A stretch of DNA of 64,000 nucleotides, taken from assembly GCA_902562835.1 (NCBI GenBank), contig CACEUX010000001.1, positions 10,568-74,567 on the forward strand, given 5' to 3'. A program made the position numbers and the translations under genes. Position 1 is the first letter of the stretch; each line of letters starts with the position of its first letter. Shown in pieces: positions 2 through 19,052 of the stretch. Below the pieces are notes generated by a model that saw only the letters and a program-made list of their open reading frames with translations, did no database searches and was not told the origin of the DNA. This stretch comes from an uncultured Fidelibacterota bacterium (GTDB lineage Bacteria > Fidelibacterota > Marinisomatia > Marinisomatales > UBA1611).

Positions 2-721
2 AGCGTTTATTGGAAAGAGTACCAGAAATACGATGATTCTGGTAATCGTATAAAGCGAATACGGTATAACCCCCTTCACGCTATTAATACCGACATGATG
101 ACCAAAAAGGGTGACTCTGGCAAAATGATTTGGGGTGAAAGCTATAGTTATGACTCTACTGGTACTGTTTTAGAAAGAAAAGAATTATACAACAATTATG
201 TTTTAGTTATTTCTACCTATGACCTTGACCCTTTTAAAAAGCCTATAAAAAGAGGAGAATATTTTGACCCTTCAGTAATATTTCAAACTGTTTATTTTCA
301 CAATGAATTCAACCAATTAACTCAAGAGGTATCCGTTGGTAGACTTGGCCAAGCGTTTGGATCCAGGACCTACGAATATGACATACTAGGTCGTCGTGTT
401 GGCACAACCTCATACAATGAATATGGAACAATTGAAGAAAGGCTAAGCACAGTGTTCGATGATGATAATTTTAAAACATACGACTATCGCTCAGATTCCC
501 TTTTAACACTAAGTGCTTTAAGAGAAGTGCTATTAGATAATGAAGGGCGTTTGTATATCGAGGCAATCCTAGATGGAAAAGAAAAAGTGTTAGAAAAAAA
601 TGTATATTACTATGATGGTAAAGGTAGAGTTTCAGAGATAAGACAGTATGATATGGTAAGACGCGGAAGGACTGGAGACCGAGAAATTCCTATTAGGGTT
701 AATACCTATGAATATGATTAA
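2..721 (+). CDS. YD/RHS-like beta-hairpin repeat protein, 5'-truncated by the window edge
   Basis: Frame is open from base 2 (SVYWKEYQKYDDSGNRIK...); repeated YxYD-xxG motifs (YSYDSTG, YEYDILG, YYYDGKG), ending TYEYD. Confidence 0.6.
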   Translation, partial: SVYWKEYQKYDDSGNRIKRIRYNPLHAINTDMMTKKGDSGKMIWGESYSYDSTGTVLERKELYNNYVLVISTYDLDPFKKPIKRGEYFDPSVIFQTVYFHNEFNQLTQEVSVGRLGQAFGSRTYEYDILGRRVGTTSYNEYGTIEERLSTVFDDDNFKTYDYRSDSLLTLSALREVLLDNEGRLYIEAILDGKEKVLEKNVYYYDGKGRVSEIRQYDMVRRGRTGDREIPIRVNTYEYD

Positions 722-4775: not shown

Positions 4776-7478
4776 GTGAAATACGTATATCTATTTGGTA
4801 ATGAATCAGCAGATGGAACTGCTGAAATGAAGAATACTTTAGGCGGTAAAGGAGCAAACCTTGCTGAAATGAATCATCTTGGAATCCCGGTTCCTCCTGG
4901 ATTTACGCTGTCTACTGATGTCTGTGGCTATTATTATGATAATAATATGACATTTCCTGAAGAATTAAATGACCAGCTTAAGAATGCTCTTGTTGCAACT
5001 GAAAATATAATGGGCTCAAACTTTGGTGACCCTGGAGACCCACTCTTACTGTCAATAAGGTCAGGCGCTAGACAATCTATGCCGGGGATGATGGAGACTG
5101 TTTTAAACGTTGGCCTAACCTCCAAAACAATTCCTGGTCTAATCTCAAAAACCGGAAATGCGCGCTTTGTATACGATGCTTACAGAAGGTTAATTATGAT
5201 GTATGCCGATGTGGTTATGGAAAAAGCAGCTGGTGTTGAGCCTGAAAACAGTAAGGGTATAAGACACAAATTAGAATCCTTAATAGAAGACCACAAACGA
5301 AGTAAACAATACAGTAATGATACTGACCTTTCCGGTGATGACTGGAAAGAATTGTCAGAGATGTTTAAAGATGAAATTGAAAGAACTCTGGGAAGCAAGT
5401 TCCCAGATGATCCAATGGAACAATTATGGGGTGGTATAAAAGCTGTATTTGCAAGTTGGAATGGAGAAAGAGCGATCAATTACAGACGTATTGAAAACAT
5501 ACCCCATGAATGGGGGACTGCTGTCAATGTCCAAACTATGGTTTTTGGCAATATGGGCGAAGATTCTGCTACTGGCGTTGCATTTACTCGTAATCCCGCC
5601 ACTGGAGAAAATATTTTTTTTGGAGAATGGCTTGTAAATGCACAAGGTGAAGATGTAGTTGCTGGACTTCGCACACCGAATCCTTTGAATGAGGATACAA
5701 AAACTGAAGAAACAAAAAATTTGACCTCCCTTGAATCGAGCATGCCAGATATCTATGCTCAGTTAAATAAAATTCGTAAAGATCTTGAAAAGCATTACTC
5801 TGATATGCAGGATATAGAATTTACCATTCAGGAAGGCAAACTTTGGATGTTGCAAACCAGGGTTGGAAAACGAAATGGCTCAGCGGCTATAAAAATGGCT
5901 GTTGAAATGAAACATGAGGGAATGCTTGATAAAGAAACTGCTTTAGCAAGGGTAAAGCCTGAACAATTAGATGAACTTCTGCACCCAATGCTTAATACAG
6001 AATCAGAAAAAAAAGCAACATTGCTTGCTAAGGGACTACCCGCAGGACCCGGGGGTGCTACCGGTCGTGTGGTTTTTACTGCTGACGATGCAGAAGAATG
6101 GCACAAGAGAGGAGAAAAGGTTATTCTAATTCGAGATGAGACATCTCCTGAAGATGTTCATGGGATGCATGCCGCAGAAGCCATCCTAACAGCCAAGGGG
6201 GGTATGACCTCCCACGCTGCACTAGTAGCTAGAGGTTGGGGAAAGTGCTGTATCGTAGGTTGCAGCGCAATTCAAATCAACACTCAAGATAGGGAGGTGA
6301 AGATTGGTGATACCAAACTAGAGGAAGGAGACTGGATCACGATGAATGGCACATCTGGTAACATATACAATGACCAGCTTGACCTTATTCCTGCAGACCC
6401 CGATACACATCCTGAATATAAGGAGTTAATGGTTTGGGCTGATGAAATAAGAAAAATGAAAATTCGTACTAATGCTGAAAGTCCTGAAGATGCTGCCCAA
6501 GCAATAAAGTTTGGAGCAGAAGGGATTGGGCTTTGTAGAACAGAACATATGTTCTTTGATGAGTCACGTATTCTGGCAATTCGAAAAATGATTTTTGCGG
6601 ATAATGAGACAAGTCGACGTGATGCGGTTATGGAGCTACTCCCATTTCAAAAAGAAGATTTTAAAGGCATATTAGAAGCCATGGAAGGGAAACCTGTAAC
6701 AATAAGACTTTTGGACCCTCCACTACATGAATTCATGACTCTCACAGAAGAACAACAAAATGAACTTGCAAAAAGTCTTAATGTTGAAATAAATACTGTA
6801 AAAAGTAGAATATCAGCTTTACATGAACTTAATCCAATGCTTGGACATCGGGGATGTAGGCTGGGTATCGCATATCCTGAAATAACAGAGATGCAGGTTA
6901 CTGCAATTCTAGAGGCCACCGCCGAGTTAACACAAGCAGGAAAATCTGTACTGCCTGAAGTCATGATTCCGCTTGTAGGAACGGTTTCAGAATACACAGA
7001 CCAAGAAAAAATTGTCCGCAAGGTTGCAGATAAAATAAATAACGAGTATAAAATAGAGCTTAAATATTTAGTGGGTACAATGATTGAATTACCACGAGCT
7101 TGCCTAACTGCAGATGAGATTGCAGAACATGCAGAGTTTTTCAGCTTTGGAACCAATGACCTTACACAGACTACATTTGGTTTTAGTCGTGATGATATAG
7201 GCTCATTTCTTCCTGATTATTTAGAGCGAAATATTCTTCCGGAAGATCCATTTCAAAGCTTAGATACAAATGGAGTTGGTAAATTAGTAACAATGGCTGT
7301 TAAATATGGGCGCGGTGTTAATGATAATCTAAAAATTGGTATCTGTGGTGAGCATGGTGGAGACCCAGCATCAATCCTCTTTTGTAAAGAGAATGGACTA
7401 GACTATGTTAGTTGCTCACCATATAGGGTGCCAATTGCTCGTCTAGCTGCAGCTCAAGCTGAATTAAATAATAACTAA
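4776..7478 (+). CDS. ppdK: Pyruvate, phosphate dikinase
   Basis: LGGKGANLAEM, SIRSGARQSMPGMM, phospho-His motif GGMTSHAA, GIGLCRTEHMF, FSFGTNDLTQ, GICGEHGG. Confidence 0.97.
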   Translation: MKYVYLFGNESADGTAEMKNTLGGKGANLAEMNHLGIPVPPGFTLSTDVCGYYYDNNMTFPEELNDQLKNALVATENIMGSNFGDPGDPLLLSIRSGARQSMPGMMETVLNVGLTSKTIPGLISKTGNARFVYDAYRRLIMMYADVVMEKAAGVEPENSKGIRHKLESLIEDHKRSKQYSNDTDLSGDDWKELSEMFKDEIERTLGSKFPDDPMEQLWGGIKAVFASWNGERAINYRRIENIPHEWGTAVNVQTMVFGNMGEDSATGVAFTRNPATGENIFFGEWLVNAQGEDVVAGLRTPNPLNEDTKTEETKNLTSLESSMPDIYAQLNKIRKDLEKHYSDMQDIEFTIQEGKLWMLQTRVGKRNGSAAIKMAVEMKHEGMLDKETALARVKPEQLDELLHPMLNTESEKKATLLAKGLPAGPGGATGRVVFTADDAEEWHKRGEKVILIRDETSPEDVHGMHAAEAILTAKGGMTSHAALVARGWGKCCIVGCSAIQINTQDREVKIGDTKLEEGDWITMNGTSGNIYNDQLDLIPADPDTHPEYKELMVWADEIRKMKIRTNAESPEDAAQAIKFGAEGIGLCRTEHMFFDESRILAIRKMIFADNETSRRDAVMELLPFQKEDFKGILEAMEGKPVTIRLLDPPLHEFMTLTEEQQNELAKSLNVEINTVKSRISALHELNPMLGHRGCRLGIAYPEITEMQVTAILEATAELTQAGKSVLPEVMIPLVGTVSEYTDQEKIVRKVADKINNEYKIELKYLVGTMIELPRACLTADEIAEHAEFFSFGTNDLTQTTFGFSRDDIGSFLPDYLERNILPEDPFQSLDTNGVGKLVTMAVKYGRGVNDNLKIGICGEHGGDPASILFCKENGLDYVSCSPYRVPIARLAAAQAELNNN

Positions 7479-7491
7479 TTATAAACCATGA

Positions 7492-7523
7492 ATAAAAAGC
7501 CCCTGCTTGGAGGGGCTTTTTAT
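7492..7523. terminator. Bidirectional intrinsic terminator between ppdK and the fliG-like gene
   Basis: ATAAAAAGCCCCT-gcttgg-AGGGGCTTTTTAT, with T-tracts on both strands, between convergent genes. Confidence 0.85.
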
Positions 7524-7555
7524 ATACAGCTAGTTAATTTTGTATTGAATAAATC

Positions 7556-8491
7556 TTATTCTATCATTTCTCCACCAGAAAGAATATCCTCTAGGTTTAT
7601 AGCGCCGTCTTTTTCCATCTGTTTCACAGCATCAACAAATAATTTCCTGGCATTATCAACCTCTCTTTTTGGTTGAGGTTTTGAAGCTAAATCTTCATTA
7701 TACATTGCCTGTTTTTTCTGAGGAAGCATGTCTTTTAATTCATTTATCTTTTCTTCTTCCAAACCTTTAAAAGCAATTGGAAGGGTGTCTAGTTCAATTG
7801 AATTTAAAAGAGTTCGAACTTGATCTTCTGGGAATTTTTCCATGATATCTTCAAATGTAAGAAATAAGACCTTTACAGCAGCGTAAAGCTCAGGATCCTC
7901 ATTTTGAAGGGTCTGCATATATCTTTCTTGGTCATTTGATGACATATCACTCAACATATCGGCTATTTCTTTAGCACCGCCTCTTGAAAAGTCAGCAGTG
8001 CGTGGAAGATAGGTTGATTTTTCTTTTAATCTTGCTCCAACCTCTATAATTCCCTCAAGCGGAATATCATCCAAAGAGCCTAATTCAATTAGGACCTGAC
8101 CTTTTAATTCTGGTTCTAGTTTGTTTAACACGGTCATTTTTTTATCAGCTTCTAACTGAGCAAGTATCATGGCAATAACTGGAGGCTCTTCTTTATCAAG
8201 GAGAGCAAACATTTGCTCATCATTGAGATCTTCTAAAAAATCAAATGGCTGAATGGGACCATCTTCTTTCGTCTCATCCTGTTCTGCTAAGAACCCAAAA
8301 TAGAATTCTTCCATCACACGTTTTTTTACAAGAAAGGATACCGTCCCCATTGATCTTACTGTAGAGCGTATTTTTCTAACTTCTGTTTTAGACAAACCTT
8401 TAATTAATGACATTGCTAAACTTTCTCCAACAACAGAGAAAAGAATTGCAACTTTTTGAAGGCCTGAAAGCATATGATAATCGTTAATCAT
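7556..8491 (-). CDS. fliG: FliG-like rotor protein (divergent)
   Basis: LSGLQKVAIL N-terminus, PFDFL, EEPPVIAMIL (EHPQ position), GG linker, FLTFEDI (MFxFEDL position), torque-helix-like KKQAMYNEDL. Confidence 0.85.
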   Translation of the reverse strand: MINDYHMLSGLQKVAILFSVVGESLAMSLIKGLSKTEVRKIRSTVRSMGTVSFLVKKRVMEEFYFGFLAEQDETKEDGPIQPFDFLEDLNDEQMFALLDKEEPPVIAMILAQLEADKKMTVLNKLEPELKGQVLIELGSLDDIPLEGIIEVGARLKEKSTYLPRTADFSRGGAKEIADMLSDMSSNDQERYMQTLQNEDPELYAAVKVLFLTFEDIMEKFPEDQVRTLLNSIELDTLPIAFKGLEEEKINELKDMLPQKKQAMYNEDLASKPQPKREVDNARKLFVDAVKQMEKDGAINLEDILSGGEMIE

Positions 8492-8511
8492 GGTCTATTT
8501 CCTTAACTTTT

Positions 8512-10320
8512 TTATTCGCTACTTTCTTCTTCATCTCCGCCGCTATCGCCACCTGATGACTCTTCGGGTTCGGGAGAGGGCGCTTCAGGAGCGGGTTGCT
8601 CAAGCCACTCTTTAACAATAGTAGATGTCCTTGTAGGCTGGCCAACACTCATAGAAACGACAGATTTTCGTATATCATCTATTTCACTTTTTAAAACATT
8701 TGGATCATCTTCAAGCGAATGCTGCTCGCCATCATTTTCCTCTGATGATACGATATCTTCAGAAGTAGTTTCAGCAGCGACCTCTTCTTCTTTTACTTCT
8801 GGCTTCTCTGATGGCTCCTTTGGTTTTTGTTCCTCCTCTTTCTTTTCTTCCTTCTGCTCTTGTTGAGCAGCAGGTTTTTTCTTTTTTCTTCTCTTTCTGG
8901 GCCTAGGAGGAGGATAAGGAGGATAGGGCATTGGCGGATAGGCTTGCTGTGGCCCTGACCTACGTTGTAGAACCATCATTGCAATAAGCGCAGCTATCAC
9001 GGCACCAAATGCAAATAACATAATTGTCTTAGTATCCAATCCTGAAGAAGTTTCAGCTTCGAGAGCATCTAAGTCAGCTTGGACCGCATCTAGAGCTGCA
9101 ATTTTTTCTGCTATTAACGAGTCCCTTTCTGCTTTCTCTTTTTCACGTTCTTGTAGTTCTGCTTCTATCTGAGCCTGCGCTTGATTTTGCGCTTCTAGAG
9201 AATCCTGCAACATTGCTTGGAGTAACATCTTTCTTAGGCTTTGCAATTCATTATCAAGCATTGCAAATCGAGTGGAGTCTAATGCGGTTGCTTTTGCTTT
9301 TTCTGTAGACTGGTTTACTGCTAGCATATCTTTTAAGGCATTAATTTCTGATTCCAGTTTAGAATTTCTAATCGAGTCTTTCCTGGATAGTTCTCTTTTC
9401 TCATATTCAGCAGCTTCTTGTAAACGCTTTTTATCTAGTTCTTCAAGCTGGGTCTCTAAAAGGGCAAGGTCTTCTTCTCTTCGCACAGATATCTCTTCTT
9501 TATAATTTTCAATATCTTCTCTCCAGTTTGTGGATTCAGATGCTCTTTTTTGTTCTAGAAGATCTATCTTTTCAGCAATATTCTTTAGCATTATTTGTTC
9601 TGCCGATCTTTGGTCTCTGCGCTCTTTAAAACTCGCTGTCATGATTGTTAGCTTATCACCACGGTCTCTATCAAATTTTGAAGCGGCCATTGTGAGCTGT
9701 CTAATATTTTCTATTAATTCGGGTGCTGCCCCCTCTTGAAGTATCAGAGATAGCTCCATACGCTTCACAATTGCTCGAGAAGGTCGCTTTCTTGAGAGAA
9801 CCTTGTCTACAACATCTCTATCTTCTTCAGCAGAATCTTGTGATGGACTATCCATCGGGTCCATAGTTTTTGGAGAAATTGGATTGCTTTCAGTCAAGGG
9901 CCTTGAACTAGGTGTTTTTGGACGAACCACATCTACTTCAAAACCTGGAATAGGCAATCCAATAGAAAAACTTTCCTGCTCAGTTTGATTATCTTGAACC
10001 ATTTTATTTTGAATCTTTACAAGAGCCTCTGCTGTTCTTTCTGCTGGAGAACTTTCTACCGGTTGGCTACGACCTGATTCTCGTGGTGCAAAAACTGTTA
10101 TCTGCTCATTAACCTCATCAAGGATCTCCAAGTCAACATCTACATTGATCACATACTTGTGAGAGTCGATTACTTTTGAAAGAGCCTCTTTAACTCGATC
10201 TCTGATATCATTTTCGACCATTAGTTTTTGAGAGAGATATCCGCTCGCCTGCGCAGAAAGCAAGGCTACACCAATAACCACTCCAATAATGGCTTTAATA
10301 TGTTTTTTACCCTTGTTCAT
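8512..10320 (-). CDS. FliF-like ring protein (RBM3/C-terminal part only) with long coiled coil, TM helix and FliG-binding-like tail
   Basis: ENDIRDRVKEALSKV...VINVDVDL, IVKRMELSLIL, IRQLTMAASKFDRDRGDKLTIMTASF, then a TM helix and PTRTSTIVKEWL; adjacent to fliG. Confidence 0.7.
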   Translation of the reverse strand: MNKGKKHIKAIIGVVIGVALLSAQASGYLSQKLMVENDIRDRVKEALSKVIDSHKYVINVDVDLEILDEVNEQITVFAPRESGRSQPVESSPAERTAEALVKIQNKMVQDNQTEQESFSIGLPIPGFEVDVVRPKTPSSRPLTESNPISPKTMDPMDSPSQDSAEEDRDVVDKVLSRKRPSRAIVKRMELSLILQEGAAPELIENIRQLTMAASKFDRDRGDKLTIMTASFKERRDQRSAEQIMLKNIAEKIDLLEQKRASESTNWREDIENYKEEISVRREEDLALLETQLEELDKKRLQEAAEYEKRELSRKDSIRNSKLESEINALKDMLAVNQSTEKAKATALDSTRFAMLDNELQSLRKMLLQAMLQDSLEAQNQAQAQIEAELQEREKEKAERDSLIAEKIAALDAVQADLDALEAETSSGLDTKTIMLFAFGAVIAALIAMMVLQRRSGPQQAYPPMPYPPYPPPRPRKRRKKKKPAAQQEQKEEKKEEEQKPKEPSEKPEVKEEEVAAETTSEDIVSSEENDGEQHSLEDDPNVLKSEIDDIRKSVVSMSVGQPTRTSTIVKEWLEQPAPEAPSPEPEESSGGDSGGDEEESSE

Positions 10321-10364
10321 GTGAAACTCCTTGGTATGTGTTTACACTCCGCATTGTAAAGTCT

Positions 10365-11309
10365 TTAATCATCCATATAACTTGTGGCAGAACGATCTCT
10401 AAGTTCCGCATCCTTAGCCGCCTTGCCTTTTAGGCCTTTCTTTTTACCATGGTGTGGTGGATTAATAAATGTAATCTGAATTCTTCTATTTGCTGATTTT
10501 TGCTTTTTTGTAGAGTTTAATGATAAAACTGTTGGCATAATTGTTTCATTACCTTGCTTGTCTACCCTAACTATTGGATCTTCCCATGTCAATGTTAACG
10601 GATTATACATCGGGTTTGCTTTTTTTACACTATCAATGCCCCTTGGATACCAATCGCCATATCCTGCCGCTAAAAGCCTTGGAGCTGGAACACCTTTTTC
10701 AATCATATACCTTACCACGGTTGCACCACGAGCCGCAGAAAGCTCCCAGTTACTCTTGTAGAATTTTTGCCATTTTTTTGGCATTGGGTCACTATCGGAG
10801 TGCCCAGCTACTTCAACCTGAAATGGGCTGGCTTGAATCCTTGGAATAATTTCTGTATCTAATAATTCTTCAAGCTCTTTCTTCATATCTGCCTTCCCAG
10901 ATGGAAAAGCAAAATCTCCTTTGATATTCACGATGAGACCCTTTGCACTAGTTTCAATATCAATAGGCGGGTCTCCAGCGGGATTTTCTTTTTTCATTTC
11001 TTCGATGGCTTCTTTCATCTCTTTTTTCATAGCTGCAAGATTTTTTATTGGCTCAAACTCTCCTTCTTCTTCTGCTTTCCCCTGAGCCTTTATTTTACTA
11101 CCTAATGATTTCCCCTGTGAGTTTGCCATCTCCTGCAGTTTTACAGGATCCATAGTAGATATAGCCGCTAGAAGCACAAAAAAAGCAAAGAGAAGCGTCA
11201 TCATATCAGCGAAAGTTCCAAACCATCCTGGAAGTCCTTCTTCAACAGAATTTACTCCTTCTTCAAAGCCTTTATTCCAGGCCTTCTTTTCTCCAGCTGT
11301 CATTCCCAT
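10365..11309 (-). CDS. motB: MotB/PomB-type stator subunit with OmpA-like peptidoglycan-binding domain
   Basis: WFGTFADMMTLLFAFFVLL TM with the conserved Asp; VAGHSD, SNWELSAARGATV, GYG, NRRIQI. Confidence 0.9.
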   Translation of the reverse strand: MGMTAGEKKAWNKGFEEGVNSVEEGLPGWFGTFADMMTLLFAFFVLLAAISTMDPVKLQEMANSQGKSLGSKIKAQGKAEEEGEFEPIKNLAAMKKEMKEAIEEMKKENPAGDPPIDIETSAKGLIVNIKGDFAFPSGKADMKKELEELLDTEIIPRIQASPFQVEVAGHSDSDPMPKKWQKFYKSNWELSAARGATVVRYMIEKGVPAPRLLAAGYGDWYPRGIDSVKKANPMYNPLTLTWEDPIVRVDKQGNETIMPTVLSLNSTKKQKSANRRIQITFINPPHHGKKKGLKGKAAKDAELRDRSATSYMDD

Positions 11310-11314
11310 TTAGA

Positions 11315-12100
11315 CTAATCTCGTTTCCACTCCGCAGGTGGGATAAAAGAATTTAGTTTTTCTCGTACAATAATTGGATGTTTTTTCTGGTGAATGAGAC
11401 GTGCTGCTTCCACAAGTAAGTTTGCAGACATGGAGGTCTGTGTGGTTTTATTTCCCATCTTTTGGGCCATAGGTAAGAAGAATAGGTTTGCAGCAACAGC
11501 ACCATAAAGAGTAGTTATCAACGCTGCAGCCATACCACCACCAAGGTTATCAGCACCACCCTCTCCGCCAAATCCAGCCAACATAAGGACAAGACCAATA
11601 AGGGTCCCAACCATACCCCAAGCAGGAGAGAGATCACCCATCGCTTTTAGCATATCTGTTTGAACCTTCTCACGCTTTTCGCGATATTCAATTCTTGTTT
11701 CCAAAATATCTGTTACTTCATCTAAAGAGTACCCATCTACTACCATTTGTACCCCATCTTTAAAGAAATAGGTTTTTATTGTATCAACAGATTTTTCCAA
11801 ATCAGCTGGCCCTTTTCTTGCATACTCAGCAACATCACAAGCCTCATCTACCAATGGACCCATTTTATCATCTGCTGGTTTCAGTACAGCACCAATCGCC
11901 TTACCAAGCGCAGCTACATGATACATAGGAAAAGCTACCATGACTGAAGCTATCATTCCTCCGATTACAATGCCAAAACTTGGGATAGAAACAAAATTTC
12001 CAAAGCCACCTGCTGCACCCTCAACAAATAACGCATAGGCAATACTGCCTATCATAAAGACCATTCCTAAAACAACACCTATAATGAGAGCAATATCCAT
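11315..12100 (-). CDS. motA: MotA/PomA-type stator subunit
   Basis: PSFGIVIGG, ARKGPADLE, GVQMVVDG, PAWGMVGTLIGLVLML, ALITTLYGA. Confidence 0.9.
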   Translation of the reverse strand: MDIALIIGVVLGMVFMIGSIAYALFVEGAAGGFGNFVSIPSFGIVIGGMIASVMVAFPMYHVAALGKAIGAVLKPADDKMGPLVDEACDVAEYARKGPADLEKSVDTIKTYFFKDGVQMVVDGYSLDEVTDILETRIEYREKREKVQTDMLKAMGDLSPAWGMVGTLIGLVLMLAGFGGEGGADNLGGGMAAALITTLYGAVAANLFFLPMAQKMGNKTTQTSMSANLLVEAARLIHQKKHPIIVREKLNSFIPPAEWKRD

Positions 12101-12104
12101 AAGG

Positions 12105-13520
12105 TCACTCCTCCATAATGCTTGTAGATTTTAATTTATTTTCGTTCAGAGCTTTCAGAATATTACGAACATCTGTATACTCTGGATCGAGGCGCAACGC
12201 CAGATTCCAGTTTATAGTAGCTCTCTGTACATCTCCTAATTTATAGTAGATTGACCCTCTTCTGGCATATGCTAATGCTAAATCAGGATTTAATTCTAAG
12301 GCGAGGTCTACCTCTTTTAAGGCCTCTCTATAGTCCCCAGCATAGAAGAACCTTAATGATCGAGATAAGAATCTCATCGCTTCATTCATGTTTTTTTCAG
12401 AAACATTAGTTTCCAATTTAAGGGATGTTAATGAATCAGATAAAAACTTACTATTTTGTTCCATTGCATTAAGACGAACAAGTAGGTTCCTCATTTCATT
12501 ATTCATTAGGGCCATAGAATCCCTAAGTGTTGATACTGCTACATTTGCCATAGCAACAGTGGAATCTCTATGTATTGGTATGCTATCATCAAATCTTTTA
12601 TTAATACCACCACTAGGCCCATATATATTGGTAGGACTAGAAGGTCCACTTTGAACTCGCTGCCTAGGGTCTCTAGGTACAGCCATATCAAGTCCCAAGG
12701 TAAAGCCTGGATGGCCAGACCAATAGCGATTGCCCCATTCTGGTAATTTTTCCATGTGGGTGAACCCTAGGTTCAGGCGGTAATCCGAGGTAAGGGGGAT
12801 GCGGAGTCCCACATTGACACCTGTCCCGTCGAATTCACCCACAATATCCATTCCACCCCGCCTTGCAAAGTACGGGGTTTTCATTAAAAAGCCTACAAAT
12901 ACGCCCGCATTATTTTCAGTGGAGTCAGTAATGACAGCTCCATTAGCATCTAATAATGCTGGAAGAGTATCTGCAGCAACTGGTGCTAATCCACCAGTTC
13001 CAAAACCAAAATATGTATCAAACTTATACTCGCCCAAGTCTTTTTGACTTGATAATACAACAAAGGCAGAAAGAAGAGAGGTGTTCAAGCTAAGCATTTC
13101 TTCTGAGGTCTGTTCGCTTTGGAAAACCACATCTTGAAGACCGACTGAAACAGAGATATCATTATACTTATAAACTCGCTGTTGAAAATGAAAACCAAAT
13201 TCAGCAGGAGCGTCATACTGAGACTCTTCTAGGTTACTTAACCTTGTTGTGTCTCCAGGTATAACAGCGGAAAAACCAGCACTAAACCCTTTACCAACCT
13301 CCATTTCAAAGAACGCACCTTTTGCAGTATTAAAAGGATTAAGGTTGTGATATTCAACCGATACTCCTGTTCTAAATAGATATGGGGTCTTTTTATTGCT
13401 TGATGTAGGAATGCGCATCATCAATCCTGGGCGTGTATATGCAACTCGGGTTCCTCCTATTAATAAACAAGAAAGAACCAGGGCTGAAATAATAGCAATG
13501 TGTCTGCGATTAAAATCCAT
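12105..13520 (-). CDS. Putative outer-membrane beta-barrel (YjbH-like) + coiled coil + C-terminal TPR protein
   Basis: Signal peptide, GLMMRIPT start, alternating aromatic/hydrophobic strands, heptad region, TPRs (ALELNPDLALAYARRG, ALRLDPEY). Confidence 0.55.
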   Translation of the reverse strand: MDFNRRHIAIISALVLSCLLIGGTRVAYTRPGLMMRIPTSSNKKTPYLFRTGVSVEYHNLNPFNTAKGAFFEMEVGKGFSAGFSAVIPGDTTRLSNLEESQYDAPAEFGFHFQQRVYKYNDISVSVGLQDVVFQSEQTSEEMLSLNTSLLSAFVVLSSQKDLGEYKFDTYFGFGTGGLAPVAADTLPALLDANGAVITDSTENNAGVFVGFLMKTPYFARRGGMDIVGEFDGTGVNVGLRIPLTSDYRLNLGFTHMEKLPEWGNRYWSGHPGFTLGLDMAVPRDPRQRVQSGPSSPTNIYGPSGGINKRFDDSIPIHRDSTVAMANVAVSTLRDSMALMNNEMRNLLVRLNAMEQNSKFLSDSLTSLKLETNVSEKNMNEAMRFLSRSLRFFYAGDYREALKEVDLALELNPDLALAYARRGSIYYKLGDVQRATINWNLALRLDPEYTDVRNILKALNENKLKSTSIMEE

Positions 13521-13562
13521 TAAGCGATATATAATTTTATTTTCATCTACATTAGAGAGGTA

Positions 13563-14735
13563 TTATTGATATTCTTCCCAATCTATTACATAAGAATATC
13601 CAATGAACGCTCCAAAATCCTGGGGAACATAAAGATCAAATTTACCTACGGCTCCAGGAAGAAGGCTCGCATCTGAAACAATCCCTGTGTCAAAAGTGTT
13701 ATATGAACCCTTAACAAAAGTGGTCAGAGTTTTTGTTTCACCACTCCAGTTCTTCCTAAAAACAAAGTCTACTTTTACAAAATCTGCTCTACGTCCACCT
13801 ATGTTTTTAATTTCACCATCAAATATTATGTTTCCCTGCCCATCCTTTTTTTCTGAAATATTACCAACCAAGACACAATTGCCAGAAAATTTTGCGCTAG
13901 CATTGCTTGCAGAGTTATTTGAAGATGTATATCGTGGTTGTGCTAGCTTAGGCATCGGTGGCGGAGTATAGCTTTCGCGTATCTGCTCTGGTACATACTC
14001 TTGCGTGTCTTCTGTAATGACATTATCGACAATTCGCACAACCTGCGCCCTATCGACAATTAAATATCCAACCAGGGTCTCTACTTTGAGCGATTTATCA
14101 TCCTGGTAAATAATCTTACCAAAAACAGTACTACCGTTTTTTAGAATTATTTCTTTTGAATAAATAGTAAGAGGGTTAACCCACATCTTACTTAAAGCCT
14201 TTAAATCATCCATTTCCTGAGAAAGGTGTTTGAATTCTGCAGAAAGCTTTTTTATTTCAAAGTTTAGCTCATTCAGAATGAAATCCTTACTTGGACTCCC
14301 CATTGCCTCCATGGTTTGTGGAACCGTCACTGAGATGCGCTCTGGCTGTCCGCTTGGCGCTGCCTTAACCTGAGATTCCGCAACTGGGGCACTAGGTTTT
14401 TTAGTTGAGAGCGCTATGTCTCCTATGTTTTCTTTTCCAGTTAGTGTGACAATTTTTTCTGCTGATCCCAAATTATCATGTGATGCCTGCAGCACATAAT
14501 CACCCTCTTCTAACTTTTTGAATTTAAACTTCCCATTGCCGCCCGTTTTTTCTTCATCAACAACTTCGCCCCCTGAAAGCAATGTGACTATGGCCTTTTT
14601 AACCTTCTTGCCATCTGAATCAACTATCCTTCCTGATAGGGTGAGTTTTCCTTTAGCATATAGAGTGGACCCTATAAGCGTAAGGACGACTGTAGCGAGC
14701 AGTGCTCGCTTTTGTAGGCTATTAATTAGTGTCAT
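13563..14735 (-). CDS. Secreted protein: carboxypeptidase-regulatory-like Ig domain + coiled coil + small beta-barrel + FxLYD-like domain
   Basis: SGRIVDSDGKKVKKAIVTL...TGGNGKFKFKKLEEGDYVL; IILKNGSTVFGKI; GEIKNIGG...LLPGAVGKF; GAGGT RBS. Confidence 0.55.
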   Translation of the reverse strand: MTLINSLQKRALLATVVLTLIGSTLYAKGKLTLSGRIVDSDGKKVKKAIVTLLSGGEVVDEEKTGGNGKFKFKKLEEGDYVLQASHDNLGSAEKIVTLTGKENIGDIALSTKKPSAPVAESQVKAAPSGQPERISVTVPQTMEAMGSPSKDFILNELNFEIKKLSAEFKHLSQEMDDLKALSKMWVNPLTIYSKEIILKNGSTVFGKIIYQDDKSLKVETLVGYLIVDRAQVVRIVDNVITEDTQEYVPEQIRESYTPPPMPKLAQPRYTSSNNSASNASAKFSGNCVLVGNISEKKDGQGNIIFDGEIKNIGGRRADFVKVDFVFRKNWSGETKTLTTFVKGSYNTFDTGIVSDASLLPGAVGKFDLYVPQDFGAFIGYSYVIDWEEYQ

Positions 14736-14789
14736 GTTTTACCTCGGATTATGAACACTTTTAGCAACAAAATGCGCTAAAGCTAGAGG

Positions 14790-14818
14790 ATTTTAATGCA
14801 AAATGGGCAATGTGTCAA
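14790..14818 (-). promoter_or_regulatory. Sigma70-type promoter of the motor-like operon
   Basis: On the minus strand TTGACA (14818-14813), 17 bp, TAAAAT (14795-14790). Confidence 0.65.
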
Positions 14819-14865
14819 GAATTTATAGAATGTATTGAATTTGATAGAAAACTATATAAAAGTGA

Positions 14866-15450
14866 TTATTTCCAAAAATCTTTTAGACGTTTTTCTCGTT
14901 CTAACGCTAGCGATAATTCCTCTTTAGTTTTTTGCATTATCTCTGGCCTCAATGAAAGGCCCAGGGCCTTTTCATATGATTCTATAATCAGATCAAAATC
15001 AGTATCTCCGATCTTATGATAAGAAAGACCAATATAATAATGAGCCTCCCCTAGCCGAGGTTTAAGCTGAGCGGCTTTATTATATTTTTGGATAGCATCC
15101 CAAAGCCCATTTTTATTGCCTTTTTTATAAAGAGAGTGTCCTTCTGCCAATAATAAATTGTATTGTGATAAAGTATCTCCATCAGAAAGTTTTAACGCAT
15201 GTGAAAAATGAACAATAGCTGCTTCATAGTTGTTTGTCTCCAGTTCCTTACTCCCAAGTCTATTGTGTGCAAATGCCAATGACCTTGTGATCGATGGTGA
15301 TAACCCATATATAGACAAAGAATCTTCTAAGGCAACTAGAGCAGCCGGGTTATTGTGAGCCATATTTTGATATTTATTACCGGCACAACTAAAAAAAGCC
15401 ATAGCTAATGGAAAAAGGAGTGGCAAATAACTAATTGATCTAACCCTCAA
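14866..15450 (-). CDS. TPR-repeat lipoprotein
   Basis: Lipobox-like FFSC; TPR helices (YEAAIVHFSHAL, AHYYIGLSY, SYEKAL); start uncertain, TTG at 15450 chosen to avoid a long overlap. Confidence 0.6.
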   Translation of the reverse strand: MRVRSISYLPLLFPLAMAFFSCAGNKYQNMAHNNPAALVALEDSLSIYGLSPSITRSLAFAHNRLGSKELETNNYEAAIVHFSHALKLSDGDTLSQYNLLLAEGHSLYKKGNKNGLWDAIQKYNKAAQLKPRLGEAHYYIGLSYHKIGDTDFDLIIESYEKALGLSLRPEIMQKTKEELSLALEREKRLKDFWK

Positions 15451-16387
15451 ATAAAAAAATCTCTTTATTTTCTCTAAATGACCGGTATAGCTCTTCCATT
15501 GACTCAATCACATAATAGCGGTCTTGTATGTTGCTATAATCAAAACAGGTCATCACTATCTCTTCAATATCATAAGGTAAAAATATAGACCGACCAGATT
15601 TCCCTTTTGCACATTCAACCACATTTGTTACCTCATCAAAAGAGGATATAATTCCCGCACCATATATCTCATATTGGATGTCATTGTGTACTCTTCTAAA
15701 ATTATCAGATGCTCCATTATTTTTTAACAGGCCATATTCATAGGTCCACCATGCAAAGTTTTGTAGTCGCTTGAGGTTATGAGTAACAAGATCGGAACCT
15801 AGCTTACGATGGTCTTTTATTATCTCATCTCCCAAAATACCAATTTCCCACATGAACTTTGCATACTCTTTGTTCATTAGAAATGGCACATGGGCTTGTA
15901 TATCATGGAAAATATCTGGCTCCGGAGTATAGCCTTTATTATTTTTAATATCTGCACCAGAATATTTCTCATCAAACCTAGGTGACTTCCTAATTATCTC
16001 TGTTACAGGGAATTGTCTTTTCTTATTTATCTCAAAAAACAACTCTTCATCTAAAAATCCCGCAACCGATAATAGCGTCCACCCTGTTGAGTTTTCAAGC
16101 AATGGGGATATTGCGCTAAAATCAGGGAACATATTATTAGGTATGGGAAGAGCTCTTAGGCCTAGTAGGTATTCACTGGAAGCGTATTGATCAAGAAGTA
16201 ATTCAAGATTTTGATAGAGCTCCGCCCAGATTCTATTCTCTAGGTTGTTTACAGCATCGTAGTCTTGAGGCTTAACATACTGGTCTTCAACCCCAAATAT
16301 CTTAATACCATCGATGCTGTTAGGAATCAGGTTTTGAAATAAATGGTCGTATCCTTGGGGCTTAGAAATCATATGATATTTTAACAA
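15440..16387 (-). CDS. Biopterin-dependent aromatic amino acid hydroxylase (PhhA-like, divergent)
   Basis: TGWTL, FPVTEIIR, YTPEPDIFHDIQAHVPFL, WWTYEYGL, YGAGIISSFDE: His/His/Glu iron ligands present. Confidence 0.8.
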   Translation of the reverse strand: MLKYHMISKPQGYDHLFQNLIPNSIDGIKIFGVEDQYVKPQDYDAVNNLENRIWAELYQNLELLLDQYASSEYLLGLRALPIPNNMFPDFSAISPLLENSTGWTLLSVAGFLDEELFFEINKKRQFPVTEIIRKSPRFDEKYSGADIKNNKGYTPEPDIFHDIQAHVPFLMNKEYAKFMWEIGILGDEIIKDHRKLGSDLVTHNLKRLQNFAWWTYEYGLLKNNGASDNFRRVHNDIQYEIYGAGIISSFDEVTNVVECAKGKSGRSIFLPYDIEEIVMTCFDYSNIQDRYYVIESMEELYRSFRENKEIFLFEG

Positions 16388-17789: not shown

Positions 17790-17988
17790 TGCCCACATAC
17801 CAGTCAGGCCAATTAAGAGCCATCCAGATTCTCCCGTTAATCAAGCTGAGAGGGCAACTATCCAATAACTCAGCTACTTACCGCCAACATATTAATCAGA
17901 AATATTAGAAACTTTTTTTAATGCGAAATAGCCTATTAATAAGGAGGGTACTGAAATAAAAAGCAAGAGCAACAAGTTTTACTATCAC
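17790..17988 (-). pseudogene. Degraded N-terminal remnant of a sodium:solute (PutP-like) symporter
   Basis: Manual translation MIVKLVALAFYFSTLL/fs/LIGYFALKKVSNISD*YVGGK*LSYWIVALSA*LTGESGWLLIGLTGM resembles SSF TM1-TM2; three stops, one frameshift, truncated. Confidence 0.75.
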
Positions 17989-19052
17989 AGATTACTTTCT
18001 GATTCGCCTGGCATTAAAACATTCATTGTTGGAAAAGGAATCGAAATATTCTGCTCTTCAAAGGTTTTATAAATCTCTGTATTAACAGAATCAACTGTTC
18101 TTCCCCTTATCTCTGGCTTGTGTATCCAAAATAATAACTGTAGCCTTAAACCATGGTCCGCAAATTCACGAAATCGAACTCTAGGTTCTGGCGAGCTCAG
18201 GACATTTTCATTTTTCTTTGCTATATCAACTAAAATTGCTTTCACCTTTACTATGTCAGTTTTATAGGAAATTTGTATATTGACCCTAACCCGCTCTGTC
18301 TCTCCTGGCCCACCACTTTCATTTACAATCTTCGATGCTGCTATCACTGAGTTGGGTATTGTTATTTCAATATCATCCCGAGTCATGAACCTTGTTGACC
18401 TTAAGCCCATTTTCTTTACATATCCCCTTTCGCCTGTATCCAGAAGGATATAGTCTCCCTCCTTAAATGGGGCATCAGCCATAAGGAAGATTCCTGCAAA
18501 AAAATTGGAAACTGTATCTTTTGCTGCTAAACCCAAAACCACACCCAAGACACCAGCAGATGCCAAAATACCATTAATGTTAATATCCCAACTAAGGAAG
18601 ATGAAGTAAGCGCCAAAAAGTCCTATACCTATTTTCCCTAGGTTGTTAAACAATGGCAGTGTGTTTTTTTGTAATACATTACTGGATGCTGTCTGCCTTG
18701 ATGCCCAGTCCATCGACATAACTAGGATTTTTGAAATAACAAACAACCAAATAATGGTTGTAACGGTTTTAAAACATCCAACCATAACAAATTCAACATA
18801 TTCTGGAAGCGCTATTGTTTTTATCGATAAAATAAATCCAACAAATAGAATGGAATAAAAAATTGGTTTATGCAAAAGCTGGAGTATTTTATCGTCCAGT
18901 GTTGTTTTTGTTGTTTTTACTACACGTTTAAAAATTAAAGAGAAAATTATATCGACAAGTTTCGCGCTGACGATTGACATCGCTATAAGAGCCAGTCCTT
19001 TTAGGGCTGTGTTGGATAGGATAAGGTTATAATATTCTTTGAAATCAAACAT
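17985..19052 (-). CDS. Small-conductance mechanosensitive channel (MscS family)
   Basis: LASAGVLGVVLGLAAKDTVSNFFAG, PFKEGDYI, MGLRST, IPNS, ISIPFP. Confidence 0.92.
   Translation of the reverse strand: MFDFKEYYNLILSNTALKGLALIAMSIVSAKLVDIIFSLIFKRVVKTTKTTLDDKILQLLHKPIFYSILFVGFILSIKTIALPEYVEFVMVGCFKTVTTIIWLFVISKILVMSMDWASRQTASSNVLQKNTLPLFNNLGKIGIGLFGAYFIFLSWDININGILASAGVLGVVLGLAAKDTVSNFFAGIFLMADAPFKEGDYILLDTGERGYVKKMGLRSTRFMTRDDIEITIPNSVIAASKIVNESGGPGETERVRVNIQISYKTDIVKVKAILVDIAKKNENVLSSPEPRVRFREFADHGLRLQLLFWIHKPEIRGRTVDSVNTEIYKTFEEQNISIPFPTMNVLMPGESESNL

Follow-up and report, generated by a model that had tools for sequence, protein, structure and literature searches.

Flagellar-type stator and rotor genes in a conserved six-gene cluster of Marinimicrobia: a probable flagellum-independent envelope motor

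What would a bacterium drive with the stator and rotor of a flagellar motor, if the remainder of the flagellum is missing? The question is raised by a cluster of six genes located in a stretch of 64,000 nucleotides, hereafter the window, from contig CACEUX010000001.1 of an uncultured member of the Marinimicrobia (SAR406, Fidelibacterota). The cluster encodes, in order, a secreted Ig-like protein (g1), a predicted outer-membrane barrel-helix-TPR protein (g2), the stator proteins MotA and MotB, a FliF-like protein and a FliG paralogue (Table 1). In the flagellar motor, MotAB exerts torque on FliG, which is bound to the FliF ring, and to our knowledge a FliG/FliF rotor is known only as a flagellar part. 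A preliminary description of the window had proposed a minimal ion-driven motor working on a non-flagellar envelope load. This proposal is supported by the absence of flagellar genes, by conservation and by selection, and we consider it probable, with moderate rather than high confidence, that the cluster encodes a self-contained, flagellum-independent, ion-driven rotor-stator machine of this phylum that is linked across the envelope. The rotation of its ring and the load that it would drive are the parts of the proposal that we infer by analogy.

Conservation of the cluster and its distribution relative to the flagellum

The six genes occur in the same order in all 28 loci of a synteny sample, which was drawn from hits with enough flanking sequence and comprises 16 loci from the order of the host and 12 from other classes; in one locus (L029), g1 is cut by the contig end. 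The genes flanking the cluster vary between loci. When compared with a genome of the same genus, at synonymous divergences (dS) of 0.18-0.52, the ratios of nonsynonymous to synonymous substitution rates (dN/dS) are 0.030 for g1, 0.033 for g2, 0.008 for motA, 0.037 for motB, 0.100 for the FliF-like gene and 0.019 for fliG. It is evident that the six genes form a conserved unit under strong purifying selection. The preliminary description had staked its proposal upon both properties, and both are found (28/28 syntenic loci; dN/dS 0.008-0.10). Marine metatranscriptome contigs from four runs of three studies, 95-99% alike to the window, lie on all six genes, the motB/motA and motA/g2 junctions being spanned by two of the contigs. 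These contigs hint that the cluster is expressed. The RNA runs held at most 0.16 of the stretch, with the uncovered bins being uninformative.

The host is a Marinimicrobia metagenome-assembled genome (MAG) of 1.84 Mb in 97 contigs, 77.7% complete, and the nearest relatives of its FliG carry the names Fidelibacterota and Candidatus Neomarinimicrobiota. Annotation pipelines call the last gene of the cluster plain FliG. In this genome, no match was obtained for FHIPEP (FlhA), Flg_bb_rod or FliP, and FliG_C was matched a single time. Among a set of 41 related genomes (the host included, 25 of high quality), an orthologue of the FliG paralogue with 48-96% identity is encoded by 35, including 23 of the 25 high-quality genomes. 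FHIPEP above its cut-off, Flg_bbr_C and Flagellin_N are each found in the same three genomes, while in the other 38, among them a 96%-complete genome of the same genus, neither Flg_bbr_C nor Flagellin_N was matched, nor FHIPEP above its cut-off. The absence of a flagellar set, claimed at first for the window, is thus borne out both in the 78%-complete genome of the host and in 38/41 relatives. Of the three flagellated relatives, two encode the orthologue together with a canonical FliG (24-27% identity) and the third encodes a canonical FliG only. In genome G030, a canonical row of fliF (535 aa), fliG (337 aa), fliH and fliI is located on a different contig from the cluster copy. A full flagellar set served by these very copies of fliF, fliG and motAB had been set beforehand as a test of the proposal; it was not found, and flagellated relatives have a separate canonical locus. 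Lastly, neither FliMN_C nor YscJ_FliF (RBM1-2) was matched in any of five genomes, one of them a single contig, and both were positive in four flagellated model genomes (FliM_N/M were not searched separately). The parts that distinguish a flagellum, namely the export gate (FlhA, FliP), the rod, hook and filament, and FliM/FliN, were encountered, in the genomes of this set searched for each of them, at most in the three flagellated relatives.

At the scale of the phylum, we compared 277 genomes that are at least 85% complete, taking a FliG match of E <= 1e-35 as orthologue-grade. Some FliG match is present in 226 of these and FlhA in 63. In a cross-tabulation that was counted by hand from two tables, and whose genome counts are non-independent through kinship, the 204 genomes with orthologue-grade FliG are divided into 46 with FlhA and 158 without it, and the 73 genomes with either a weak canonical-type FliG match or none are divided into 17 with FlhA and 56 without it. 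All 17 FlhA-positive genomes of the latter group have the weak canonical-type match. The cluster occurs with or without a flagellum across the phylum, and it follows from the cross-tabulation that it is neither a remnant nor a part of one.

Motor core and envelope partners

The stator proteins are recognized readily. MotA matches Pfam MotA_ExbB (E 2e-26), and MotB matches both MotB_plug (E 5e-15) and OmpA (E 2e-11). The nearest NCBIfam families of MotA are MotP (1.6e-51) and PomA (1.3e-44), in both cases below the equivalog cut-offs, and its closest solved structures in the PDB are C. sporogenes MotA (3.8e-34) and Vibrio PomA (5e-33). In all 29 orthologues examined, the MotB channel residue Asp35, which we take to be the equivalent of E. 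coli D32, is invariant, as are MotA Arg95, Pro159 and Pro210, the two prolines presumably corresponding to E. coli P173 and P222; MotA Glu102 is present in 27/29. Arg95 and Glu102 align with the E. coli MotA loop residues R90 and E98, for which passages of two papers describe a charged-loop pairing with FliG (PMC12505986, PMC7564593). The pair therefore presents the features of a flagellar-type stator: a charged loop in MotA, and a plug, a channel Asp and a peptidoglycan-binding domain in MotB.

The FliG paralogue contains all three of the Pfam domains FliG_N, FliG_M and FliG_C, is nearest in NCBIfam to FliG (below the equivalog cut-off), and aligns with solved FliG structures over the middle and C domains (E 2e-17). 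Identity to the paralogues elsewhere in the phylum is 37-96%, versus 22-27% to canonical FliG. When 11 paralogues were aligned with two canonical FliGs from flagellated relatives, the paralogues proved ~26-30 residues shorter between the N and middle domains, and they retain the Gly-Gly linker with the adjoining hinge as well as basic residues of the torque helix. The N, middle and C domains are consequently all in place along with a charged torque helix, the charges of which are partly kept. The FliM-binding motif of the middle domain, which we take to be EHPQR, is absent from the paralogues: the canonical FliGs have E-H-P-Q at this site, whereas in the 11 paralogues Glu alone is invariant and both His and Gln are lost. 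This loss fits the absence of FliM/N. As a separate observation, the same-genus genome G001 has two FliG-paralogue matches, C7 and C52 (94% and 70% identity), which means that the cluster is present twice or that the bin is mixed.

For the FliF-like protein, the Pfam match is weak (YscJ_FliF_C, E 7.6e-6). A profile built from 29 orthologues matches residues 241-438 of Salmonella FliF, comprising RBM3 and the collar insertion (E 3e-7), and it also matches Vibrio FliF. The AlphaFold (AF2) model of the protein, with a mean predicted local distance difference test (pLDDT) score of 67.5, is outlined in Table 1, and the top 18/18 Foldseek matches to this model are FliF MS-ring/RBM3 entries. Comparison of the profile with the canonical FliF of one relative by hhalign is weak (probability 19%, E 0.0012) and covers only the first half of RBM3, so the claim of FliF homology rests on the PDB profile and the fold search. 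Only RBM3 was matched in the Pfam, profile and fold searches, with RBM1 and RBM2 absent, and the protein is thus not a FliF possessing all three of these domains. It resembles RBM3 in both fold and profile and may assemble into a large homo-oligomeric ring. The best conserved part of the protein is its tail, in which Glu546 and Trp572 are invariant among the 29 orthologues; the pattern of this tail, consisting of a Pro and a helix ending in basic residue-any-Trp-Leu, is that of the end of a relative's canonical FliF. The C-terminal tail of FliF binds the N domain of FliG.

Two further sites in the FliF-like protein deserve mention. Gln24 (window 10249-10251), located directly after the N-terminal hydrophobic stretch, is invariant in 29/29 orthologues. 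Gln24 may mark a cleaved signal peptide of the 'Q-rule' type known from the Bacteroidota, in which case the FliF-like protein would be single-pass, unlike the two-pass FliF. Pro125-Gly126 (window 9946-9951), also invariant, belongs to a short conserved motif inside the variable disordered insertion of RBM3 and has the appearance of a short linear motif that binds a partner, perhaps one of the TPR proteins. A complex prediction that paired residues 26-428 of the FliF-like protein with residues 320-471 of g2 returned a score of 0.00, which is no verdict either way.

The two remaining proteins of the cluster would face the outer part of the envelope. g1 matches Pfam CarboxypepD_reg (Ig-like, E 2.6e-11), and in its layout a signal peptide and this domain are followed by a coiled-coil stretch and two beta domains, a small one and one at the C-terminus; FxLYD, a label that had been given to it at first, was not matched in Pfam or NCBIfam. 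Conservation of g1 across the phylum begins only at about residue 140, as the alignments of its remote orthologues (299-349 aa) start at residues 103-154 (131-154 in 10/12), and the clusters similar to this conserved core contain Fidelibacterota hypothetical proteins only. g2 has a Pfam TPR match at its C-terminus. Its AlphaFold (AF2) model (pLDDT 76.7) consists of a signal helix, a 12-strand beta-barrel (~47-282) and a disordered linker, followed in the C-terminal half by a 75-residue helix (320-394) and three TPR repeats (397-470). The fold matches of the barrel in Foldseek are FapF, KdgM/NanC-type porins, PelB and a designed 12-strand barrel, and VIA-align gives Z scores of 17.5 for KdgM (root-mean-square deviation 2.3, 163 aligned) and 16.4 for NanC. 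The barrel-coil-TPR architecture that was originally read from the sequence of g2 is supported by this model, and the fold searches are in agreement.

Mean column identity of g2 is 51% (28 sequences). In a set of 1.84 billion representative proteins, its barrel has only 110 relatives (E <= 1e-3), of which those of full length measure 414-489 aa, and a scan of one genome per species, with a 5-sequence alignment as the query, yielded 226 loci with g2 homologues (a 12-sequence alignment had no usable conserved stretch). Among the best 80 of these 226 loci, all that are named are Marinimicrobia-type, except for one Gammaproteobacteria-labelled MAG, and many are simply 'uncultured bacterium'; a family within the same class forms one of the most remote branches. 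Since the named relatives of the g1 core and of g2 are almost all Fidelibacterota/Marinimicrobia, the accessory proteins look phylum-specific, whereas the motor core is of flagellar descent. The genome with the exceptional g2 contig (L050) also encodes a FliG paralogue (37% identity) and a canonical FliG, and it is probably either mislabelled or a mixed bin. In another locus (L023:7157-8865), g2 is read as two open reading frames (ORFs) of 354 aa and 229 aa, which points to a frameshift, a misassembly or a gene that is truly split. In families other than f1 and f2, g1 and g2 are separated by one or two extra genes; 9/9 of those tested encode TPR proteins. Most of these are of the TPR_6 type, and in one of them a coiled-coil was matched at the N-terminus.

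A proposed envelope motor and its rivals

Judged by sequence, the cluster keeps the features needed for each known step of torque generation, and a mechanism can be proposed upon this basis. Firstly, MotB would use its OmpA-like domain to anchor MotA5B2 units to peptidoglycan, ions would pass the invariant MotB Asp35, and MotA/MotB would turn against the C-terminal domain of FliG. Secondly, the N domain of FliG would be held on the conserved C-terminal tail of the FliF-like protein, whose RBM3 domain would form a ring on the periplasmic side of the inner membrane, with the FliF-like/FliG ring as the rotating body. Because the FliM/N site is absent, such a motor would probably be one-directional and outside of chemotaxis control. 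The most speculative steps concern the transmission of work. Instead of a rod, the ring might bear helical hairpins that project into the periplasm and form a cage, and work might be handed to the outer membrane via g2 (as a barrel anchor, a long helix and a peptide-binding TPR domain), g1 and the lineage-specific TPR proteins. As the output, one would expect an envelope process, for example the movement of outer-membrane or surface components or a powered transport across the outer membrane. In its fullest form, the proposal would describe a trans-envelope rotary organelle, in which MotAB, FliG and an RBM3-only FliF have been freed from secretion and filament and a periplasmic helical cage drives an outer-membrane barrel-TPR complex specific to the phylum, with gliding or surface transport on marine particles or powered traffic through the outer membrane as its possible outputs. 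We offer this fuller form only tentatively and consider it somewhat more likely to be wrong in part than to be correct throughout.

Several observations weigh against a rotary motor of this kind: 1) the ring, its rotation and the contacts between the cluster proteins are all inferred by analogy, 2) the cluster has been lost from whole lineages, e.g. family f12 (0/21), and it is therefore dispensable, 3) the length of the periplasmic hairpin varies from ~40 to ~190 residues, and it is nearly absent in two lineages, which makes it a poor fit to a drive shaft of fixed length, 4) the torque helix of FliG is only partly conserved, as its acidic pair varies within the phylum and the FliG of the window has Pro, with a Lys-Arg adjacent, where E. 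coli FliG has Arg281, 5) the metatranscriptome contigs are from relatives and may include carried-over DNA, 6) the negative genome searches rest on MAGs and single-cell assemblies, a few single-contig genomes apart, and 7) the phylum has a single cultured member, which has been described as non-motile (PMC11652737). In the passages found of that description, the genes of the cluster are not mentioned.

The principal rival explanation retains the parts but dispenses with rotation. The cluster could encode a non-rotary, envelope-spanning complex, in which a MotAB-like unit, powered by the ion gradient, pulls on or reshapes a static scaffold of FliF-like/FliG and the TPR and barrel proteins, much like the Tol-Pal and TonB-ExbBD systems. 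Its suggested roles are to tether the outer membrane, to act in division or to gate uptake via the barrel of g2. Some features of the envelope proteins would suit such a complex. The barrel of g2 resembles small substrate-specific porins, as seen from its Z scores with KdgM and NanC, and the extra genes between g1 and g2 in most lineages combine coiled-coil and TPR_6, which is the domain make-up of CpoB/YbgF of the Tol-Pal system. The variable length of the hairpin also suits a flexible tether more than a shaft. TolB itself was above its cut-off in 0/21 relatives, although this is a weak test, in which the only matches were to PD40 repeats below the cut-off, and it is uninformative. The motor core is more difficult to accommodate. 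The stator is of the flagellar type and appears not to be of the ExbB/TolQ type, given its MotB plug, its best matches to MotP/PomA and the conserved charged loop that meets FliG. Similarly, a three-domain FliG and the tail of FliF have been retained, for which no role is known besides the taking of torque. We regard a non-rotary complex as unlikely, albeit the most serious competitor of a rotary motor.

A second rival would assign the cluster to protein secretion, as the missing type IX secretion motor of the phylum in place of GldL/GldM (PorL/PorM). The phylum seems to run the SprA translocon without the known GldLM motor: SprA is encoded by 274/277 genomes, whereas GldM was detected in 1/277, a bin with 5% contamination that shows the search to be capable of detecting GldM, and in a set of five genomes GldL, GldM and GldM_1st over its cut-off each scored 0/5. 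Like GldLM, the cluster would transmit ion-driven motion across the periplasm to parts of the outer membrane. However, the two do not co-occur. Family f12 has SprA in 21/21 genomes and the cluster in none, nearly all of the ~73 genomes lacking the cluster have SprA, and the cluster was never beside sprA in the loci read. Moreover, divergent GldL/GldM could escape models built from Bacteroidota. We hold this explanation to be improbable. The distinction from GldLM drawn in the preliminary description is upheld by the same counts (GldL 0/5, GldM 1/277), insofar as Bacteroidota-built models can reveal it.

With regard to leftover or accessory flagellar genes, whether a decaying remnant or a second rotor/stator of a flagellum missed in incomplete MAGs, the existence of flagellated lineages in the phylum (FlhA in 63/277), a host genome that is only 77.7% complete and the FliG label given by pipelines are outweighed by the low dN/dS (0.008-0.10) and intact frames in 28 loci, by the absence of FlhA from 158/204 cluster-bearing genomes that are at least 85% complete, by high-quality and single-contig genomes without FliM/N, FliF RBM1-2 or rod, by the distinct FliF and FliG (22-27% identity) of flagellated members and by the lost FliM-binding motif, such that this explanation is largely refuted and very improbable indeed. 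A Zorya system was also considered and rejected: PADLOC returned only a ZorB-type match to the OmpA part of MotB and nothing for the other five proteins, and the lack of any ZorA, ZorC or ZorD match agrees with the earlier statement that the gene set differs from Zorya.

Related systems and structure of the locus

Returning to a flagellum-independent rotary motor as the preferred explanation, it is instructive to compare the cluster with the systems that it most resembles. With the core of the flagellar motor, it shares a stator having a plug, a channel Asp and a charged loop, a three-domain FliG, an RBM3 of the FliF type with a FliG-binding tail, and the compact gene order motA-motB-fliF-fliG. 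Unlike that core, the cluster is not accompanied by an export gate, ATPase, rod, hook, filament, L/P rings or FliM/FliN, as is also the case for most host genomes; its FliF-like protein lacks RBM1/RBM2 and has a long periplasmic helical hairpin; its FliG lacks the FliM-binding motif and the segment between the N and middle domains; and its further members are a barrel-TPR protein of the outer membrane and a secreted protein specific to the phylum. GldLM/PorLM of the Bacteroidota, which belong to the same FCB superphylum, constitute an ion-driven inner-membrane motor of the MotA/ExbB superfamily that presumably carries motion through the periplasm to parts of the outer membrane. The cluster differs in using a large ring of FliG/FliF type as its putative rotor, and its presence does not track SprA. 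The Tol-Pal and TonB-ExbBD systems share its stator superfamily, its envelope-spanning layout and, in most lineages, CpoB-like TPR accessory proteins, whereas the cluster has a MotB plug, a PomA/MotP-like MotA, and FliG and the FliF-like protein apparently in place of TolA/TonB. Zorya (ZorAB) likewise places a MotAB-like pair outside of the flagellum, but the cluster is a conserved core trait of its phylum and not a mobile island, and the likeness of its MotB to ZorB/OmpA is generic.

Motor proteins have been kept as paralogues or outside of a complete flagellum elsewhere, as with the second FliG of spirochaetes and the chlamydial FliF/FlhA/FliI. Those cases keep parts of the export apparatus or serve a real flagellum, whereas the cluster comprises a stator and rotor alone with outer-membrane partners of their own. 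The combination of barrel, periplasmic helix and TPR in g2 recalls PelB, BcsC, PgaA, AlgE/AlgK and FapF, two of which (FapF and PelB) are among its top fold matches. In g2, however, the order is reversed, with the barrel first, and the barrel has 12 strands and the size of KdgM/NanC; in addition, the cluster contains no polysaccharide synthase or amyloid genes.

No published description of the cluster was found in the literature within reach of our search, which did not extend to subscription journals and supplementary files, and this suggests that the use of a flagellar rotor-stator outside of the flagellum is a variant not previously described. Flagellar-type stators have been treated as markers of flagellar motility, with a 'flagellar ion transporter' clade defined among them in passages of one study (PMC12505986). 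If correct, a trans-envelope engine of this kind would be the first non-flagellar use of a FliG/FliF rotor. It would also provide a living example of a rotor-stator module that works without an apparatus for type III export, and would thereby inform the question of how flagella evolved. A rotor-stator set that is conserved, under selection and apparently expressed in a phylum mostly devoid of flagella would show that the torque module can be kept and can work without export and axial parts, rendering scenarios of modular origin testable. Furthermore, it would point to an undescribed energy-coupled envelope process in a globally abundant marine lineage, as SAR406/Marinimicrobia are among the most abundant bacteria of the dark ocean and, with one cultured member, their cell biology is poorly known. 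On a practical level, hundreds of Marinimicrobia genomes would be given a wrong label by any genome annotation or trait prediction in which fliG, motA and motB count as 'motility'.

Within the window, the cluster spans 7556-14735 on the minus strand and consists of six co-oriented ORFs with intergenic gaps of 4-44 bp. The ORFs, their Pfam and NCBIfam domains, the promoter-like site and the hairpin are all visible in the sequence, and the preliminary account of the locus as six co-oriented, tightly spaced genes is therefore correct. Its assignments of the flanking signals can be followed in part. The site proposed as the promoter is present, with 11/12 consensus matches and the top score in 7300-15700; however, promoter-like sites in the region number 23 versus 19.7 +/- 4.9 in shuffles, which is not above chance, and its use as the promoter of the cluster is consequently plausible but not proven. 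Similarly, the hairpin proposed as a bidirectional terminator can be seen with its A- and T-runs between fliG and the gene that converges upon it, which encodes a pyruvate phosphate dikinase, although it is missing from the list of sites returned by a consensus scan.

Table 1. Coordinates of the cluster and its flanking features, numbered over the whole window (cluster on the minus strand), and of the segments of the predicted FliF-like model, numbered by residue
Feature	Position	Strand	Description
g1	13563-14735	-	secreted Ig-like protein, 390 aa, signal peptide
g2	12105-13520	-	predicted outer-membrane barrel-helix-TPR protein, 471 aa, signal sequence
motA	11315-12100	-	stator A subunit, flagellar (PomA/MotP-like) type
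motB	10365-11309	-	stator B subunit: plug, transmembrane Asp, OmpA-like peptidoglycan-binding domain
FliF-like gene	8512-10320	-	putative ring protein, 602 aa
fliG paralogue	7556-8491	-	311 aa; N, middle and C domains
Candidate sigma-70-type promoter, TTGACA-17-TAAAAT	14790-14818	-	in the 130-bp gap upstream of g1
Candidate bidirectional terminator hairpin	~7494-7520	.	GC-rich, A-run on one side and T-run on the other; read from sequence
Possible seventh gene (uncertain)	14866-15507	-	TPR protein, 213 aa (Pfam TPR); directly upstream of the promoter-like site
FliF-like model: N-terminal helix/hydrophobic segment			before the RBM domain
FliF-like model: RBM3-type ring-building domain	residues ~47-231 (fold 56-229)		split by a disordered insertion
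FliF-like model: two long helices	residues 236-343, 356-425		predicted periplasmic helical hairpin
FliF-like model: transmembrane helix	residues 430-454		followed by a disordered Pro/Lys-rich linker
FliF-like model: conserved two-helix tail	residues 540-574

The gene upstream of the promoter-like site may be a further member of the cluster. Its orthologue precedes g1 in three relatives, L130 (91.5% identity), L025 (43%) and L026 (47%), and its dN/dS is 0.106. In the family to which the window belongs, a TPR gene of 190-225 aa is found upstream of g1 in place of the insertion between g1 and g2, and it may stand in for the g1-g2 TPR gene of other families; the equivalence is unproven, as the 213-aa protein and that of other families have no similarity in BLASTP (E 1.6). 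Further upstream are two genes that are not conserved beside the cluster in other loci, encoding a homologue of biopterin-dependent aromatic amino-acid hydroxylases (15440-16387) and an MscS-type mechanosensitive channel (17985-19052).

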